Below are positions 4,520 to 64,000 of a DNA stretch of 64,000 nucleotides, in pieces. This stretch comes from Escherichia coli (GTDB lineage Bacteria; Pseudomonadota; Gammaproteobacteria; Enterobacterales; Enterobacteriaceae): assembly GCF_024223415.1 (NCBI RefSeq), contig NZ_CP100502.1; one strand, 5' to 3'. The notes beneath the pieces are model-generated. The model made no database searches and was not told where the DNA came from. It saw only the letters and a list, made by a program, of their open reading frames with translations. Every line of letters begins with the position of its first letter. The first letter of the stretch is position 1. The position numbers were made by a program, and so were the translations under genes.

Positions 4520-4855
4520 CAGTCGCGCCGGATGCGGCGCTCCCTGCACACCTTACGGTGTGTAAGGCCACTGCGCCTGATGGCGCAGCTGTCTCTGCCT
4601 GTCTGCCGCCGCACTGCGGCCTGTTCTCCGCAGATGGACTTTCCGGGGGTACATACACGACCACATCCCGTTTCAGTCGTCCAGGGGAGAGATGTACCAG
4701 CCACAAAACTTTTTGCCGCAGGCGTCAAAAACTTTTGCGTCTGCCCCCGGACAACTGCCCCGTGACGTGGTGAGCGTCCCCCGTCGGAAAGGTCCACTGC
4801 GGGGAAATCCCCGAAGACCCGGACGGCAGAAGGAGCTTCGCTCCTCCGGGAAATG
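4520..4855 (+). promoter_or_regulatory. Frpo/ssi-like repeat copy B (candidate single-stranded-DNA promoter), ending just before the SD/ATG of the 4898 gene
   Basis: Paralog of 1625-1960; shares blocks ggcgctccctgcacaccttacggtgtgtaaggc and tggactttccggggg...ccccgtgacgtggtga...ggaaaggtccactgcgggga. Confidence 0.5.
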
Positions 4856-4897
4856 ACCTGGCTGACCCGGCAGTCGTGACGATGAGGAGACAATGTG

Positions 4898-5746
4898 ATG
4901 AATCAGACTTTACCCACTGCTGACCTGAATACTGCCGGCACGACAGATGTTATTCCGTCTGTGGCCATCGACCGCATCATCGCGCAGCGTAACGAAGGTA
5001 TTGCACTGTTCATGCAGGCGATGGAATGCCTGGCGACAGCGCGCAGGATTCTGCTTGATGCGTCAGGTGATATTTTTCTTTACGGTTTTGAAGACTGCGT
5101 GACCGACTCCGTTCGGTGCATGGATAAACCGGAAGAAGCGAAAAGGAATATCACCCGTCTTGCCGACCGGAAAATCTGGGACCGCCTGATGACGGATACG
5201 GGGATGTACACCTTCATGAGTTCATGTCAGCGTGATGAGTGGAACAGCCAGCTGATGAGCGACACCTGTCCTGAAATCACCCTGGACAATGTACTGGCAA
5301 CTTTTCGCCATCTGAATGCCAGTAAGATGCAGACATTTGAACAGGGACTGATTGATGTCTACCGGAAATTGTCATGGGATTACAGAACCAATAATCCCTG
5401 CCGTCTGGGCAAGAGAATCATTATTGAAAACCTGCTGTACCGCTGGAGTAACGGGCGTGTTACGCTGGACTGCAGCGGACGGGAGGCACTGGATGACCTG
5501 GTACGTCCGTTTTATCTGCTGGAGGGGCGCAACGTTCCTGACTTCCGGAGCAGCATCGGGGCGCAGTACGGTGAATTTATCGGGAACGGCGACAATGTCG
5601 GTAAGCTGTTAGAAGGGGAATATTTTACGGTGCGTGGCTACCAGAAAGGGACCGTACACATTGTCTTTAAGCGTCCTGACCTTGTTGAAAAACTGAATGA
5701 TATTATTGCACGGCATTATCCTGGTTCATTGCCGCCACGAGTCTGA
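4898..5746 (+). CDS. Hypothetical leading-region protein, 282 aa
   Basis: ORF track (4895 is GTG; ATG at 4898 has SD gaggag 8 nt upstream); terminator follows. Confidence 0.6.
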   Translation: MNQTLPTADLNTAGTTDVIPSVAIDRIIAQRNEGIALFMQAMECLATARRILLDASGDIFLYGFEDCVTDSVRCMDKPEEAKRNITRLADRKIWDRLMTDTGMYTFMSSCQRDEWNSQLMSDTCPEITLDNVLATFRHLNASKMQTFEQGLIDVYRKLSWDYRTNNPCRLGKRIIIENLLYRWSNGRVTLDCSGREALDDLVRPFYLLEGRNVPDFRSSIGAQYGEFIGNGDNVGKLLEGEYFTVRGYQKGTVHIVFKRPDLVEKLNDIIARHYPGSLPPRV

Positions 5747-5756
5747 TTAAACAGAA

Positions 5757-5787
5757 AAGCCCTGGTATTTATGCCGGGGCTTTTTTT
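5757..5787 (+). terminator. Rho-independent terminator
   Basis: Stem gccctgg / ccggggc followed by ttttttt. Confidence 0.75.
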
Positions 5788-38251: not shown

Positions 38252-38381
38252 AACGCTCCGCGCCGAATCGATCCATGATGGATGACTCGACGATTTATGA
38301 ATCGAACGTACCGGCGCTTGTCCCTGAAACAGTTCCCGGCCCTCGTCCGGATAACCTGCAATTCAGACAGGCACATGTGCC
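38252..38381 (-). promoter_or_regulatory. Conserved ~130-bp leader element, copy 1 (traG-traH intergenic); contains perfect palindrome ggcacatgtgcc (38370-38381)
   Basis: Shares aacgctccgcgcNNaaNcgatccatgatgg and ccctcgtccRgaYaaYcYgcaRttcWgacaggca blocks with 62171-62292 and 63233-63357. Confidence 0.6.
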
Positions 38382-61629: not shown

Positions 61630-62184
61630 CTATGGGATGTTTACAAGGCGCTCCATAAAGCCGTGATGTTCGGCATTTGATACCAGTTCCAGGAGCAGGG
61701 ATATCCTCGACTCAGGCTGGAGAGTATTTTCCATTCTGAGGAGATACTGATATTGTGCTTTTGTCAGCCATATGCTGGAAGCCGCATTCAGCTCTTCCCT
61801 GGCTCCCGGATTTAGCACAGGGTCCGGGTAAATCTTCATTAATCCATCAACAATATCTTTATTGACGGGTTTTATTTCACCGCCAAACTTCACGAAATCA
61901 ATGAAGGCGCTATGGCGACGTAATGCCGATACTGGTTGAATGTCAAAATTAGCCAGAATAAAAAAGTACCCTGGAAAAATAGCGAATATTCTTTCACGGT
62001 AACAGCACCTGGAGTCTGCCCGTCTTATCTTTCTTGTTATTAATGGAGTCCATGGTACGACGTTTTGCTCATTCAGCCATGAGAATAAAGATTCTCTGTT
62101 TTTGCCGGCTGTATTATATTGCGCAAGATACCAGTTCCGGTTATTCAGGTGTTCTATATTCACGAAGTTCAACGCTCCGCGCAA
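61630..62184 (-). CDS. RfaH/NusG-family transcription antiterminator paralog (R64 traB position), ~180 aa; true start probably downstream of the TTG at 62184
   Basis: NGN-domain pattern NWYLAQ...PWTPLITRKIRR...IFAIFPGYFFI...FVKFG parallels RfaH (SWYLLY...PMITLEKIVRG...LFPNYLFV...FVRFG) as I recall it. Confidence 0.65.
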   Translation of the reverse strand: MRGALNFVNIEHLNNRNWYLAQYNTAGKNRESLFSWLNEQNVVPWTPLITRKIRRADSRCCYRERIFAIFPGYFFILANFDIQPVSALRRHSAFIDFVKFGGEIKPVNKDIVDGLMKIYPDPVLNPGAREELNAASSIWLTKAQYQYLLRMENTLQPESRISLLLELVSNAEHHGFMERLVNIP

Positions 62185-62604: not shown

Positions 62605-62913
62605 TCACATTTTTTCGTTTTCTTTAGCTGTATTGCTAATCATGAAAACGAAAGTTCGCATCAGCACAGCAGAGCGAAGTGCATCATATCCTTCCAGATT
62701 TAAATTCTTCAGGCTTCGCTTCAGGTAGGTTCGTACCGTTTCGGGAGAAAGCCGACAGTTCTGAGCAATGGCGTCGTAAGGAACACCCATTGCGTAAAAA
62801 ACGCAGACTTTAAGCTGGTTTGTTGATAGCTCGGGAAACATGCCTTCCAACAGAGTGATGGCCGGGAGTTTCTGTATCAGTTGAGGTGACATAGCAAAGG
62901 TCTCCGATGACAA
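62605..62913 (-). CDS. LuxR/GerE-type HTH transcription regulator, ~100 aa (R64 traA position)
   Basis: C-terminal HTH LSTNQLKVCVFYAMGVPYDAIAQNCRLSPETVRTYLKRSLKNL. Confidence 0.6.
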   Translation of the reverse strand: MSSETFAMSPQLIQKLPAITLLEGMFPELSTNQLKVCVFYAMGVPYDAIAQNCRLSPETVRTYLKRSLKNLNLEGYDALRSAVLMRTFVFMISNTAKENEKM

Positions 62914-63232
62914 CTAAAAACGCTATCACCGAGTTCCTACGCTCATTGGTGATAGCCCAGACGGGGGTAGGAATACCGGCGTCATCGGAAACCGGCCAGG
63001 CTAATGCCTGCCCCGCCTGAGCTACCATAGATGACGACAAGAAATACAAGTTCCTGTCTTTATGGTATGGCAAAAAACGACGCCAAATGAAGAAATTAAC
63101 TTCTGCGCCGACGATGACTACGCGGGTTCCTACGCCCGATCACAGTTTTGCCTGTGACCAGTAAAGGGTACTTAGTATAACGCACCGAGTCAACTAACAG
63201 CTTAAAAAACATACAAAAAAGCGTCAAAACTT

Positions 63233-63357
63233 AACGCTCCGCGCCGAAGCGATCCAGGCATGATGCTTCTGCTTTGTGGCGTTCGAACATGCTGGTCCAT
63301 ATGCACGAAACGGTGTCTGACCCTCGTCCAGACAATCCGCAGTTCTGACGAACATAT
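63233..63357 (-). promoter_or_regulatory. Conserved leader element, copy 3 (upstream of the LuxR-type gene)
   Basis: See 38252-38381. Confidence 0.55.
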
Positions 63358-63439
63358 GAACAAATATGCTCTTGTAGAGGCTGTTGTTACACAATTGGCG
63401 GGTTGTGTAACAAATGGTTTTATCATCTAAGAATTATTC

Positions 63440-63705
63440 TATTTACGATCGAATGATCTACAAAATGATTTTTTAAAGGTTATTTAGATCGTTTAATTGC
63501 ATTAAAACAGAATATTATTCTGTTGGGTAGATCGGTTGTAAGATAAATGATCGTGAGTAGGACAAAAGTCGATCTTTTAATCCAAAAGAAAGATCTAAAG
63601 CAGAAAAATCTGCTTTTAAAAATAGATTTTATTTTTTTGACGCAGGTCAAGATTAACTTATTAGAGGTATCAGTGAGGAGGCACTGGAAGAGAAGAGATC
63701 GTTGT
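63440..63705. other. AT-rich region with eight GATC sites and repeated (A/T)GATCG motifs
   Basis: GATC at about 63446, 63455, 63486, 63529, 63549, 63569, 63592 and 63697. Confidence 0.5.
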
Positions 63706-63892
63706 AATGCTTTTCAAATTAACGTAAAGCGGGTATATTTCGGCTGTTATTAGCTGTGCAGAGGGTGGCACTCTGTGGAGCAAAGCGGCGAAAGCCGGAC
63801 GGCAGAATGCGCCATAAGGCATTCAGGAGAGATGGCATGTACGGACAGTAAGTCAGAAGACTGAAGATGTTCCGGAAGCCATAAAAGGAAAA

Positions 63893-63943
63893 CCCCCACT
63901 ATCTTTCTTACGAACTTGGCGGAACGACGAAAGATAGTGGGGG
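63893..63943 (+). ncRNA. Stem-loop with 15-bp perfect stem and UUGGCG in the loop: candidate structure I of an I-complex (IncI1/B/K/Z) RepZ mRNA leader, the target of the antisense Inc RNA
   Basis: cccccactatctttc-[ttacgaacttggcggaacgac]-gaaagatagtggggg; rep genes would lie beyond the window end. Confidence 0.45.
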
Positions 63944-64000
63944 CCTCACAGAATACGGGTAAAGTATAATGAAACCGTACCAGAGATTCAACCCTGTGCA

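Follow-up and report, generated by a model that had tools for sequence, protein, structure and literature searches.

The stretch of DNA analyzed here (64,000 nucleotides, hereafter the window) belongs to an IncI1/Iγ plasmid, and its end falls inside the rep region of that plasmid. The segment 63300-64000 is present in 1183 PLSDB plasmids typed IncI, with at least 95.9% identity, and plasmid L001 is 100% identical to it. Two features had been singled out in a preliminary description, a stem-loop and a GATC-rich tract upstream of it, and both were found to be real by sequence, fold and site counts (Table 1). The stem-loop is an already known textbook element, with nothing new in it. For the region as a whole, we lean towards the view that two separate things adjoin here: the start of a copy-number cassette (63885-64000) and, outside this cassette, a divergent control region for a transfer regulator (63440-63700).

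Table 1. Features at the right-hand end of the window, in order of position.
Feature	Position	Strand	Basis
Hairpin, 11-bp stem, 5' end of the leftward leader	63384..63413	-	Sequence
Candidate leftward promoter TTGTAG-16-TAGAAT, leader of the transfer-regulator operon	63439..63466	-	Read from sequence
GATC-dense AT-rich tract, eight Dam sites	63447..63700		Counts, shuffles, conservation
Twin GATC GATCgaatGATC, 8-bp spacing	63447..63458		Sequence
GATC within TAGATCGTTTAA, -26.5 bp from the palindrome center	63487..63490		Kept in 4 of 6 I-complex lineages
Module core, 15-bp palindrome CAGAATATTATTCTG	63508..63522		Lrp consensus match
GATCGT (63549) and CGATCT (63571), 21-22 bp apart	63549..63574		Alignment A1
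Conserved T-run, then TTGAC-N4-GTCAA (FNR/CRP-like core TTGA-N6-TCAA)	63630..63650		Alignment A1
Candidate repZ promoter TTTTCA-17-TATATT, predicted start ~63746	63711..63739	+	Promoter scan
Near-invariant repZ-leader block CGGCAGAATGCGCCATAAGGCATTCAGGA	63800..63828	+	Alignment A1
Inc RNA gene	63883..63991	-	Promoter scan; terminator read from sequence
Structure I of the repZ mRNA leader	63893..63943	+	Sequence, fold, Rfam, covariation
Start of the repY leader peptide (29 codons, runs past the window)	63969..64000	+	Rest read in L001

The two stem arms, CCCCCACTATCTTTC (63893-63907) and GAAAGATAGTGGGGG (63929-63943), pair over 15 bp with no mismatch and enclose a 21-nt loop (63908-63928) that carries TTGGCG at 63916-63921, just as had been described. 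Folded as RNA, the element had a minimum free energy of -27.6 kcal/mol (z = -4.3), and 0 of 200 shuffled sequences were equally stable. Its earlier reading as structure I of an I-complex Rep leader was supported by the Rfam family PK-repZ (RF01087), which matched 63885-64000 at 144.9 bits (gathering score 44), the match being truncated at its 3' end where the window stops. In L001, where the identical locus is complete, the full-length match (4586-4734) reached 194.5 bits. The UUGGCG loop is retained in six I-complex lineages, and the 15 stem pairs are conserved across these lineages, 3 of the 15 with compensatory changes. Structure I is the target of the Inc RNA, and its loop is one partner of the repZ pseudoknot.

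The window stops 32 nt into repY. The rest of repY, the CGCC pseudoknot partner and the repA GTG were read in L001 because they lie outside the window. There, the remainder of repY runs into an annotated repA at 4747-5778 (= repZ), with which it overlaps, and the CGCC lies just upstream of the repZ GTG. In the identical plasmids, this GTG sits at window-equivalent position 64046 on the plus strand, 46 bp past the window end. The rep genes that had been expected downstream on the plus strand are thus present, repY from 63969 and repZ just beyond the window; a rep gene lies close downstream and the locus aligns to I-complex inc regions.

An Inc RNA encoded on the minus strand had also been anticipated, and both of its signals were found in silico. 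The promoter scan gave TTGAAT-17-TATACT (63991..63963, minus strand), and the terminator consists of the structure I stem followed by TTTTCCTTTT (63892..63883). The predicted transcript would start at about 63956 and measure about 70 nt. A CopA-like Rfam match on the minus strand (63885-63978) was weak, its 38.2 bits falling short of the gathering score of 60. For pCol1B9, Inc RNA expression has been reported (PMC7491321). The same Inc promoter occurs in IncB/O, IncK2/Z and the L011 lineage. Likewise, the candidate repZ promoter (P_repZ) has the same hexamers and spacing in IncB/O and IncK2/Z, and two conserved blocks, GGGTATATT and CTTTTCAAA, mark it in alignment A1. Further into the repZ leader, the block CGGCAGAATGCGCCATAAGGCATTCAGGA includes a GAATGC/GCATTC hairpin and is invariant in the six I-complex lineages except at two sites, one in L010 and one at the block edge in L011.

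The Inc/repY/repZ mechanism is established for ColIb-P9 and sets the copy number of IncI1 plasmids. Applied to this locus, the repZ mRNA would be made from the candidate promoter and fold into structure I, and the antisense Inc RNA would kiss its UUGGCG loop. This binding would block both repY translation and the pairing of the loop with CGCC, the pseudoknot required for repZ translation. Judged by sequence, the locus is a member of the ColIb-P9-type control family. The inc-repY-repZ region of ColIb-P9/R64 (RF01087) has the same loop, antisense promoter and terminator, 29-codon repY, CGCC and RepZ; its sequence is essentially identical, with no substantive difference from the window. The IncB pMU720 RNAI/repB-repA and IncFII CopA/CopT systems follow the same logic, in which an antisense RNA kisses a UUGGCG-bearing loop, but their stem sequences are unlike those here, and it is stem differences that define incompatibility groups. 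The matches of PK-repBA (RF01089, 35-41 bits) and CopA (38 bits) to this locus were both below gathering scores.

The AT-rich tract with eight GATC sites had been placed about 200 bp upstream of the stem-loop, and its end indeed lies 193 bp before the stem. The sites (63447, 63455, 63487, 63530, 63549, 63571, 63592 and 63697) span 254 bp. In pESBL (NC_018659), they correspond to 35926, 35934, 35966, 36009, 36028, 36050, 36071 and 36176, each 27521 lower than in the window. Their spacings are 8, 32, 43, 19, 22, 21 and 105 bp, several of them near whole helical turns, which the conserved 8-bp twin is not. The site at 63592 falls in a BglII site at which several IncI1 GenBank records begin. In the window as a whole, GATC is under-represented (164 sites versus 265 ± 14 in shuffles), and the next densest 260-bp stretch holds 4. 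When the 164 sites were scattered at random, 0.055% of trials gave a 260-bp stretch with at least 8 (scan P = 5.5e-4), and the local base composition predicts 0.65 sites in the tract versus the 8 seen. The claimed excess over chance therefore stands, whereas the statement that the sites lie mostly within (A/T)GATCG was too strong, since 4 of the 8 have this context and 5 of the 8 read GATCG. An extended GATCGT(T) repeat was considered as a binding motif and rejected, as it showed only modest enrichment (4 of 8 sites, estimated P≈0.03). The eukaryotic Rfam family snoR77 matched 63378-63503 with 32 bits, short of its gathering score, and this was taken as chance.

No other 260 bp of the window is as rich in AT as the tract (27% GC versus 49.7%). 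It could accordingly be read as a generic H-NS/Hha silencing site between divergent promoters, with a functionless excess of GATC. H-NS-family proteins directly repress the equivalent IncX promoter (PMC11880322; bioRxiv 10.64898/2026.02.23.707533), and an hha/ymoA-like gene of pESBL was scored essential by TnSeq. However, AT-richness lowers the number of GATCs expected, and each of the 11 next most AT-rich segments holds 0-1. Moreover, the GATC positions are conserved across plasmid families, and all eight are retained in five IncI1 variants (96-98% identical), the substitutions that separate these variants having missed them. We consider silencing as the whole explanation very improbable.

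The palindrome CAGAATATTATTCTG fits both published E. coli Lrp consensus sequences, YAGHAWATTWTDCTR and AGAATWWWATTCT (PMC5554404), exactly. Every other site in the window has at least two mismatches; by analytic calculation, the expected number of exact matches is 0.015 for 64 kb and 0.0006 for the tract. An exact match is found in five of the six I-complex lineages through four different sequences, the changes between lineages sitting at degenerate positions of the consensus, and the palindrome of the Salmonella p48k family is an exact match too. In IncX2/3/5, the palindrome reads CAG(C/A)ACA(T/A)GTAGCTG and has 3 mismatches to the Lrp consensus. Just the outer CAG...CTG is common to all lineages. 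Because the IncX palindromes carry three mismatches, the factor shared by all these plasmids may not be Lrp.

The GATC sites are arranged around this palindrome in a conserved geometry (offsets were measured with the NusG-like gene placed on the left). Those at 63549 and 63571 are retained in all six I-complex lineages, and the first lies at +35.5 bp from the palindrome center. All 10 lineages compared, drawn from five groups, had a GATC at +35.5 (+34.5 in L016), and in none of them did it lie on the side of the NusG-like gene. In permutation tests, this agreement gave P < 5e-6 by composition and P = 4.8e-4 with the number of sites fixed. Here, the Dam-site offsets are -26, +35.5 and +57 bp; in other families they are +27.5 and +35.5 bp, and the twin motif seen at the left end of the tract recurs as GATCnnnnGATC at +27.5/+35.5 in IncX2/3/5 and L011. 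The GATCs lie within 3-6 bp of positions spaced 31.5 bp from the palindrome; as Lrp half-sites, the sequences around them are poor. Among the 71 YAG-N9-CTR sites of the window, this one alone has GATCs at both offsets.

The same arrangement is widespread. In IncB/O, K, Z and Iγ plasmids, a homologous module sits between rep and traB, the gene of the NusG-like transfer activator, and the traB-rep spacer holds 5-8 GATCs in IncB/O, IncK2/Z, IncIγ/K1 and the L011 lineage. The module's blocks align across lineages where blastn fails, TraC being only 37% and TraB 53-65% identical. In a Salmonella 48-kb family that encodes a VirB-type secretion system, the palindrome and six GATCs lie upstream of NusG paralogues, and IncX2/3/5 have the related palindrome and twin GATC in the actX promoter region. 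According to the annotations across lineages, the module lies directly upstream of a NusG-paralogue gene or its leader. The shared pattern may in part reflect common descent.

The preliminary description had placed the tract at the edge of a replication-control region, a view that does not fit this distribution. The pESI-like megaplasmids retain 63300-63692 together with traABC and without repZ, and in IncX and the Salmonella 48-kb family, too, the module goes with the NusG-like operon. The tract thus appears as a conserved module that is linked to transfer rather than to replication. A Citrobacter/Enterobacter lineage (L014, L015; TraB 54% identical) yielded no clean example of the module; all that it showed was a degenerate CAGAATATACCTCTA separated by about 55-62 bp from a twin GATC, which was not counted. 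A scan of public genome contigs for GATC-N(10-40)-AGMATATTATKCTG-N(4-34)-GATC returned at least 120 matches, almost all of them chance hits in unrelated phyla, and its two enterobacterial matches (L040, L079) were within ABC-transporter coding sequence. In the literature on Dam, SeqA or Lrp and IncI, R64 or pCol1B9, we found no description of this tract, nor any experiment tying Dam, SeqA or Lrp to transfer or replication of I-complex or IncX plasmids. We also found nothing on an IncI1 plasmid in a Salmonella methylome paper (strain 14028; PMC7708049).

The operon to the left of the module comprises traB (the NusG/RfaH paralogue) and traC and, in IncI1, also a C4-like RNA and traA. Its leader in IncI1 is homologous to the traB leader of IncB/K, candidate promoter included: TTGTAG-16-TAGAAT aligns column by column with the IncB/K candidate TTGCCA-16-TAATAT. 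It is a weak match to the consensus, under the threshold of the promoter scan, and has the twin GATC in and beside its spacer. A second leftward -10-like candidate, TTTAAT, directly follows the palindrome. In pESBL, traA expression requires the Hft region (window 62915-63184), and traB promoter activity resides within the traA-traB spacer (PMC5801416). Given these two elements, the tract is not the sole, and perhaps not the main, driver of traABC in IncI1.

Further elements were considered. The hairpin at the 5' end of the leftward leader was entertained as a loading site for TraB and dropped after a repeated element, GCGCGGAGCGTT, appeared; this candidate ops-like 12-mer lies at 63244..63233 with two more copies on the same strand, and the ops-like sequence of IncX3 differs from it. 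Within the tract, TTGACGCAGGTCAA (63637-63650) is conserved, but it was rejected as an FNR site because 2-mismatch FNR matches are no commoner in the window than chance predicts and because it could not be placed at a standard distance from any promoter. FNR activates the pil genes in pESI (PMC5013300), and any such action through the 63630-63650 site would be conjectural.

The earlier suggestion of a Dam-sensitive control region, or of a set of protein-binding repeats, seems reasonable in this context, its SeqA version for replication being the weaker one. We propose that the tract acts as a methylation-sensitive control region, involving Dam and an Lrp-like factor, for the promoter of the transfer regulator, divergent from P_repZ. 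From the sequences, their statistics, their conservation and the gene context, we infer the binding protein, the role of methylation and the promoter affected. A DNA-bending factor acting as a dimer or multimer, for which host Lrp is the likeliest candidate, would nucleate at the palindrome and spread to flanking GATC-containing sites about three helical turns away. The methylation state of these sites would alter their occupancy and hence the output of the promoter. In an established plasmid, the GATCs would be fully methylated; right after replication or conjugative entry, they would be hemimethylated. SeqA on the hemimethylated pair spaced 21-22 bp apart and H-NS on the AT-rich DNA may contribute as well.

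The same logic operates elsewhere: both the pap operon and pSLT traJ are regulated by Lrp together with Dam. The control of pap has been summarized previously (PMC13337833). As in the tract, the GATCs of both systems stand about three helical turns from an Lrp-consensus site, upstream of the promoter of an appendage or transfer activator, and traJ is the same kind of biological target, a plasmid transfer activator. In contrast, neither system has sequence homology to the tract, and the tract GATCs flank the consensus site instead of lying inside it. The pap switch also differs in layout, with two sets of three sites and GATCs 102 bp apart, and it has a PapI-like gene, for which no candidate was noticed here.

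A SeqA trap of the dnaA promoter or oriC type was weighed against this proposal. Hemimethylated once the plasmid has replicated, the GATCs would then bind SeqA, which would transiently shut P_repZ and stop immediate re-initiation. The density of 8 GATCs in 254 bp is comparable to that of oriC with its 11 sites (PMC13337833), and three intervals in a row, of 19, 22 and 21 bp, come to about two helical turns each, as suits SeqA dimers (PMC2691817). In addition, the -35 hexamer of the candidate P_repZ follows GATC 63697 at a distance of 11 bp, and IncB/K/Z have a GATC at the predicted P_repZ start site. However, the GATCs closest to P_repZ are the least conserved, and the geometry is fixed to the palindrome and the NusG-like gene, which SeqA does not require. 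The module also exists without an adjoining rep gene in pESI-like, p48k-like and IncX plasmids, and the Inc RNA already sets the copy number. The IncI1 records that start at the BglII site, inside the tract, point the same way; to our knowledge, the upstream part is not needed in ColIb-P9 mini-replicons. A SeqA trap at P_repZ is thus unlikely. Compared with the known SeqA clusters (oriC, the dnaA promoter and P1 oriR), the tract has a similar GATC density and some two-turn spacings and adjoins an initiator promoter, but it is not at an origin, is found without rep genes, is centered on a palindrome and takes its polarity from the NusG-like gene.

The palindrome could also be the operator of a factor other than Lrp, either a host protein or a shared plasmid protein, at or in the core promoter of the NusG paralogue. 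This would account for its placement in IncX2/3/5, where it appears to occupy exactly the 17-bp spacer between TTGAA(C/A) and TAAAGT, a position typical of an operator and not of an upstream activating site; the placement agrees with the numbering of VirBR sites from the start site (PMC11214620). The 3 mismatches of the IncX version and the restriction of the common sequence to the outer CAG...CTG are in keeping with such a factor. In pESI, which carries this tract, deletion of lrp caused no significant change in pilV mRNA, a result given as "data not shown" for one condition and one downstream readout, while FNR and TraB did matter (PMC5013300). On the other hand, the palindromes of the I-complex and p48k perfectly fit two independent Lrp consensus sequences, and the known regulators of the IncX promoter bind elsewhere, VirBR at AAAAATTTAGTTAACTTGAC (PMC11214620) and PrfaH at the ops-like TCGGGGTCATCCGAGTCG in the 5'UTR. 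All these plasmids share a single plasmid-encoded protein, the NusG paralogue, which binds single-stranded non-template DNA. A non-Lrp operator is therefore rather unlikely, and we know of no such factor. The role that the flanking GATCs would then play, as an extended contact surface or in the tuning of binding, is similarly doubtful.

The IncX promoters PactX/PprfaH are further counterparts of the tract. Like the tract, they are AT-rich and stand upstream of a NusG/RfaH paralogue that antiterminates a type IV secretion operon, and they carry a related palindrome of the form CAG-N9-CTG, accompanied by a twin GATC at +27.5/+35.5. Published work on IncX has described VirBR, H-NS and ops-like sites, but not the palindrome and the GATCs. 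The I-complex version differs in having more GATCs and in sharing its spacer with P_repZ. Methylation control of the Lrp/Dam kind might thus extend, as a common switch, to the promoters of NusG-paralogue antiterminators in I-complex, IncX and some IncFII-typed plasmids, although we hold this broad form only tentatively and expect it to fail sooner than to hold. Its parts would be the palindrome CAG-N9-CTG, acting in the I-complex as an Lrp site, together with Dam sites at +27.5/+35.5 bp, an assignment that is just as tentative. Since newly entered or newly replicated DNA is hemimethylated, the switch would briefly turn on the transfer genes in new transconjugants. If true, it would explain in molecular terms the "transitory derepression" of IncI plasmids, a high-frequency-transfer state that has been known for a long time.

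Plasmids of the IncI complex and of IncX rank among the foremost carriers of ESBL, NDM and mcr genes. NusG-like antiterminators turn on their transfer, and the signals upstream of these antiterminators are not well understood. A palindrome-plus-GATC module conserved at such promoters is a concrete and cheaply testable hypothesis that bears on the coupling of transfer to replication, to arrival in a new cell and to nutritional state. The module may also explain "superspreader" behavior along with transitory derepression.

One sequence similarity connects the two halves of the locus. The loop of the leader hairpin (63413..63384), CCCGCCAA on the minus strand and TTGGCGGG on the plus strand, has CCGCCAA in common with the loop of the Inc RNA. 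Speculatively, the hairpin could kiss the UUGGCGG loop of structure I and so couple transcription of the transfer operon to repZ translation. At the homologous position, IncB/K have another stem (CGGTTT/AAACCG), with a loop that contains CCCGCC.

In PLSDB, 1,656 plasmids match window positions 63300-64000 (the last 700 bases), and for 1,183 of them the match reaches 95.9% identity or more over at least 80% of this region. Almost all of the latter are conjugative plasmids of E. coli, Salmonella, or Shigella typed as IncI1 or IncIγ. The window end is the exact end of many plasmid records, a conventional start point of such records. In pC60-108, the initiator gene, annotated repA, begins 46 bp past the window end, and the other strand carries upstream traA, a NusG-family gene (traB), traC, and the pil genes.

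The preliminary description had assigned the terminal stem-loop to structure I of the repZ leader, with repY/repZ just beyond the window on the plus strand and the Inc RNA on the minus strand, and each of these assignments was borne out. The stem-loop is just as described, with a perfect 15-bp stem and a 21-nt loop; as RNA, it folds at -27.6 kcal/mol and beats 200 of 200 shuffles. The Rfam family RF01087 (repZ regulatory pseudoknot) matches at 144.9 bits against a gathering score of 44, and the match is cut by the window end alone: in a 100% identical plasmid locus that runs on past this end, it scores 194.5 bits over all 150 positions. The repY frame has 29 codons (MKPYQRFNPVQCINTRHNRSAISDSLWQV); reading on in the identical locus, the CGCC partner of the loop comes next and is followed by the repZ GTG, overlapping the repY end. 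On the minus strand, a promoter, the same stem, and TTTTCCTTTT make up a complete predicted Inc RNA gene of ~70 nt. IncB/O, IncK2/Z, and L011 (divergent, IncI1-like) have the same promoter. The six aligned I-complex lineages preserve all 15 stem pairs, with compensatory changes at 3, and show no variation in UUGGCG. The stem-loop is the already known ColIb-P9 copy-control system, credited to Asano and Mizobuchi in PMC7491321 and PMC10286972, and the sequence here is a full family member.

The reported excess of GATC in the AT-rich tract upstream is also real. Eight sites lie within 254 bp (63447-63700), and the densest other 260-bp stretch of the window holds at most four. Random placement gave at least 8 sites per 260 bp in 0.055% of trials, and local base composition predicts 0.65 sites in the tract. 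No part of the window is richer in AT than the tract (27% GC); each of the eleven next most AT-rich segments has zero or one GATC. Window-wide, GATC is strongly under-represented (164 sites versus 265 ± 14 expected from dinucleotide-preserving shuffles), so the local cluster stands out even more. This scarcity across the plasmid backbone could reflect avoidance of MutH or of GATC-specific restriction. Five IncI1 variants with about a dozen differing positions in this stretch retain all eight sites.

Distant I-complex plasmids (TraB 53-65% identical, TraC only 37%) align to the window by blastn only from ~63790 onward, yet their traB-rep spacers hold five to eight GATC. Multiple alignment revealed shared blocks: TAGATCGTT, a 15-bp palindrome, GATCGT and CGATCT 21-22 bp apart in all six lineages, and a T-run followed by TTGAC-N4-(G/T)TCAA. 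The likely repZ promoter and a near-invariant leader block were recovered as well. Apart from L011, every I-complex lineage has the T-run followed by TTGACGCAGGTCAA (core TTGA-N6-TCAA, FNR/CRP-like). FNR reportedly activates pil genes and conjugation in pESI, a plasmid that carries this stretch.

The palindrome, CAGAATATTATTCTG, agrees in sequence with all 15 positions of the Lrp consensus of E. coli, YAGHAWATTWTDCTR, and also matches the alternative consensus AGAATWWWATTCT (both quoted in PMC5554404). It is the sole site in 64 kb with at most one mismatch; under a first-order model, 0.015 exact matches are expected per window and 0.0006 in the tract. The palindromes of other I-complex lineages (CAGCATATTATGCTG, CAGCATATTATTCTG, and TAGAATAATATTCTG) are all exact matches, since their sequence changes are confined to degenerate positions; the palindrome of one lineage departs at one position. 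Distances from the palindrome centre were compared in ten sequences, each turned so that the NusG-like gene stands to the left. All ten have a GATC at +35.5 bp (+34.5 in one lineage), and five have a second at +27.5; further sites occur near +57 in each of the six I-complex lineages and near -26 in four of them. When the ten sequences were treated as five groups, a shared offset arose in 0 of 200,000 composition-preserving shuffles and in 0.048% of trials with the GATC number per flank fixed. Among the 71 YAG-N9-CTR sites in the window, the palindrome alone has GATC at both distances. In our reading, the offsets appear to fall 3-6 bp to either side of 31.5-bp multiples (three helical turns), counted from the palindrome; such an arrangement would be expected if a protein like Lrp placed additional dimers beside the first.

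The tract had been regarded as the edge of replication control. This was not borne out: the palindrome-GATC module tracks the transfer activator rather than the replicon in pESI-like, 48-90 kb Salmonella, and IncX plasmids. The pESI-like Salmonella megaplasmids retain window positions 63300-63692 together with traA, traB, and traC, diverge beyond, and lack repZ. Their homology to IncI1 breaks off precisely at the tract's final GATC (~4390 in L012, window ~63692), just upstream of the -35 of the likely repZ promoter, which indicates that the replicon-replacing recombination left the control module entire. With TraB as the tblastn query, 26 related Salmonella plasmids came to light (48-90 kb, VirB-type secretion, IncFII/FIC typing) in which both NusG paralogues are preceded by TAGAATATTATTCTG with six flanking GATC within 150 bp; their 5'UTR has the ops-like sequence of IncX type known from PMC11880322. 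IncX2, X3, and X5 have a related palindrome, CAG(C/A)ACA(T/A)GTAGCTG, an imperfect Lrp site, with an adjoining twin GATC in the actX promoter region. By our reading, it would fill the 17-bp spacer of a good candidate promoter, TTGAA(C/A)-17-TAAAGT, in agreement with the numbering in PMC11214620, a placement more suggestive of an operator than of an activating site upstream. The twin GATC sits just upstream of the -35 hexamer. In the IncX literature, VirBR, H-NS, and ops-like sites are mapped, with no mention found of the palindrome or twin GATC; nor did a literature search including IncX promoter papers yield any paper mentioning the GATCs or palindrome of the tract. As far as we could find, the layout of a palindrome with GATC at +27.5/+35.5, common to several plasmid families, is undescribed.

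We propose that the tract serves as a methylation-sensitive control region of the leftward transfer-regulator-operon promoter. In this model, the palindrome would be the nucleation point for Lrp or a similar factor, Dam sites at the adjoining contact positions would determine or reflect its occupancy, and the state would shift when the plasmid has just replicated or just entered a cell. Lrp/Dam control of traJ in pSLT follows a similar logic. So does pap (PMC13337833). SeqA could bind the 21-22-bp GATC pair (spacing rules in PMC2691817), and H-NS could bind the AT-rich DNA. An effect on the adjacent repZ promoter is possible and not required by the evidence. Of the earlier suggestion of a SeqA/Dam-sensitive or protein-binding control region, the GATC cluster stands and SeqA sequestration is the less likely version, as the tract fails one defining feature of such sites, a tie to an origin or initiator gene. 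Dam/Lrp-controlled promoters would be its closest functional likeness. It cannot be called a pap-type switch: it lacks the two sets of three sites, no PapI candidate was noticed, and its Lrp or Dam dependence is a prediction. The tract probably belongs among the methylation-sensitive regulatory regions, as a new representative. Against a role for Lrp, lrp deletion in pESI left pilV mRNA unchanged (data not shown there), whereas fnr and traB deletions did change it (PMC5013300). In pESBL, the Hft region, which lies to the left of the tract, is required for traA expression, and traB shows its own promoter activity (PMC5801416); thus, the IncI1 tract may be just one of several inputs to the transfer genes.

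With promoter candidates on both sides, each assigned purely by its match to consensus, the tract is a predicted spacer between two divergent promoters. The IncB/K traB leader aligns with the leftward leader, promoter candidate included. The 12-mer GCGCGGAGCGTT occurs three times in the window, always on the transfer strand (0.31 expected at one mismatch or fewer), and each copy ends a repeated ~150-nt leader (…CTGTCAGAACTGCAG…GGATCGnTTnGGCGCGGAGCGTT) shared by the IncB/K/Z traB leader. It resembles the RfaH ops element GGCGGTAGCGTG minus one T and is a candidate ops-type loading site for the NusG paralogue TraB. The leftward leader also holds a second TTGGCG-loop hairpin, with an 11-bp stem and the loop TTGGCGGG. 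The window has just 14 perfect hairpins whose stems reach 10 bp or more, and both of those with a TTGGCG loop fall within its final 620 bp. Read on the minus strand, the loop of this second hairpin is CCCGCCAA, with CCGCCAA in common with the Inc RNA loop. Judged from sequence, the loop of this conserved hairpin may mimic that of Inc RNA, and the hairpin could kiss structure I of repZ mRNA. In IncB/K leaders, the homologous position has a different stem and a CCCGCC loop.

Features of the rep-tra region and of related IncX loci (window coordinates unless a locus is named)
Feature	Position	Strand	Remark
GCGCGGAGCGTT copies	63244..63233, 62182..62171, 38263..38252	minus	
Hp1 ('ash family protein')	62810-63073	minus	RefSeq, 87 aa
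Hft locus of pESBL	62915-63184	minus	NC_018659 35394-35663 (offset: minus 27521)
C4-like RNA	62945-63032	minus	Rfam, 77.5 bits, gathering score 45
a1/b1-like element	63119-63171		within Hft
GC-rich hairpin with T-run	63251..63218	minus	leftward leader
Leader hairpin, then structured leader	63413..63384	minus	downstream of leftward promoter candidate
Weak leftward promoter candidate TTGTAG-16-TAGAAT	63466..63439	minus	consensus match only
TAGATCGTT	63484		
Palindrome	63508-63522		
GATCGT; CGATCT	63549; 63571		
T-run + TTGACGCAGGTCAA	63630-63650		
Likely repZ promoter TTTTCA-17-TATATT	63711-63739	plus	hexamers and spacing conserved in IncB/O, IncK2/Z
Leader block (29 nt)	63800-63828		
RF01087 match	63885-64000		
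Stem-loop arms	63893-63907, 63929-63943		TTGGCG at 63916-63921
Inc RNA promoter TTGAAT-17-TATACT	63991..63963	minus	
repY ATG	63969	plus	
IncX2 palindrome region	L137 1381-1426		upstream of actX/prfaH
IncX5 palindrome region	L138 1364-1409		upstream of actX/prfaH
IncX3 palindrome region	L139 1381-1409		upstream of actX/prfaH

Across all six I-complex lineages, the repZ leader keeps a 29-nt block, CGGCAGAATGCGCCATAAGGCATTCAGGA, nearly unchanged, with two variable sites and diverging flanks. The block contains a small hairpin, GAATGC/GCATTC, and no described function was found for it.

The high-frequency-transfer ('superspreader') locus Hft of pESBL coincides with an Rfam C4 antisense RNA and includes a sub-threshold match to the c4-a1b1 target (32.9 bits). 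Transfer-boosting transposon hits cluster at both Hft ends, TraA was overexpressed ~50-fold, and small RNAs were suspected by the authors, who named none (PMC4288162, PMC5801416). The ends with clustered hits are the positions of the C4-like RNA and the a1/b1-like element. Repression of traA by an antisense module like immI of phage P1 would account for both Hft and the drd11 mutations. The annotated Hp1 frame spans the C4-like RNA, and its overexpression left transfer unaffected (PMC5801416); this frame is probably an artefact of annotation over an RNA gene.
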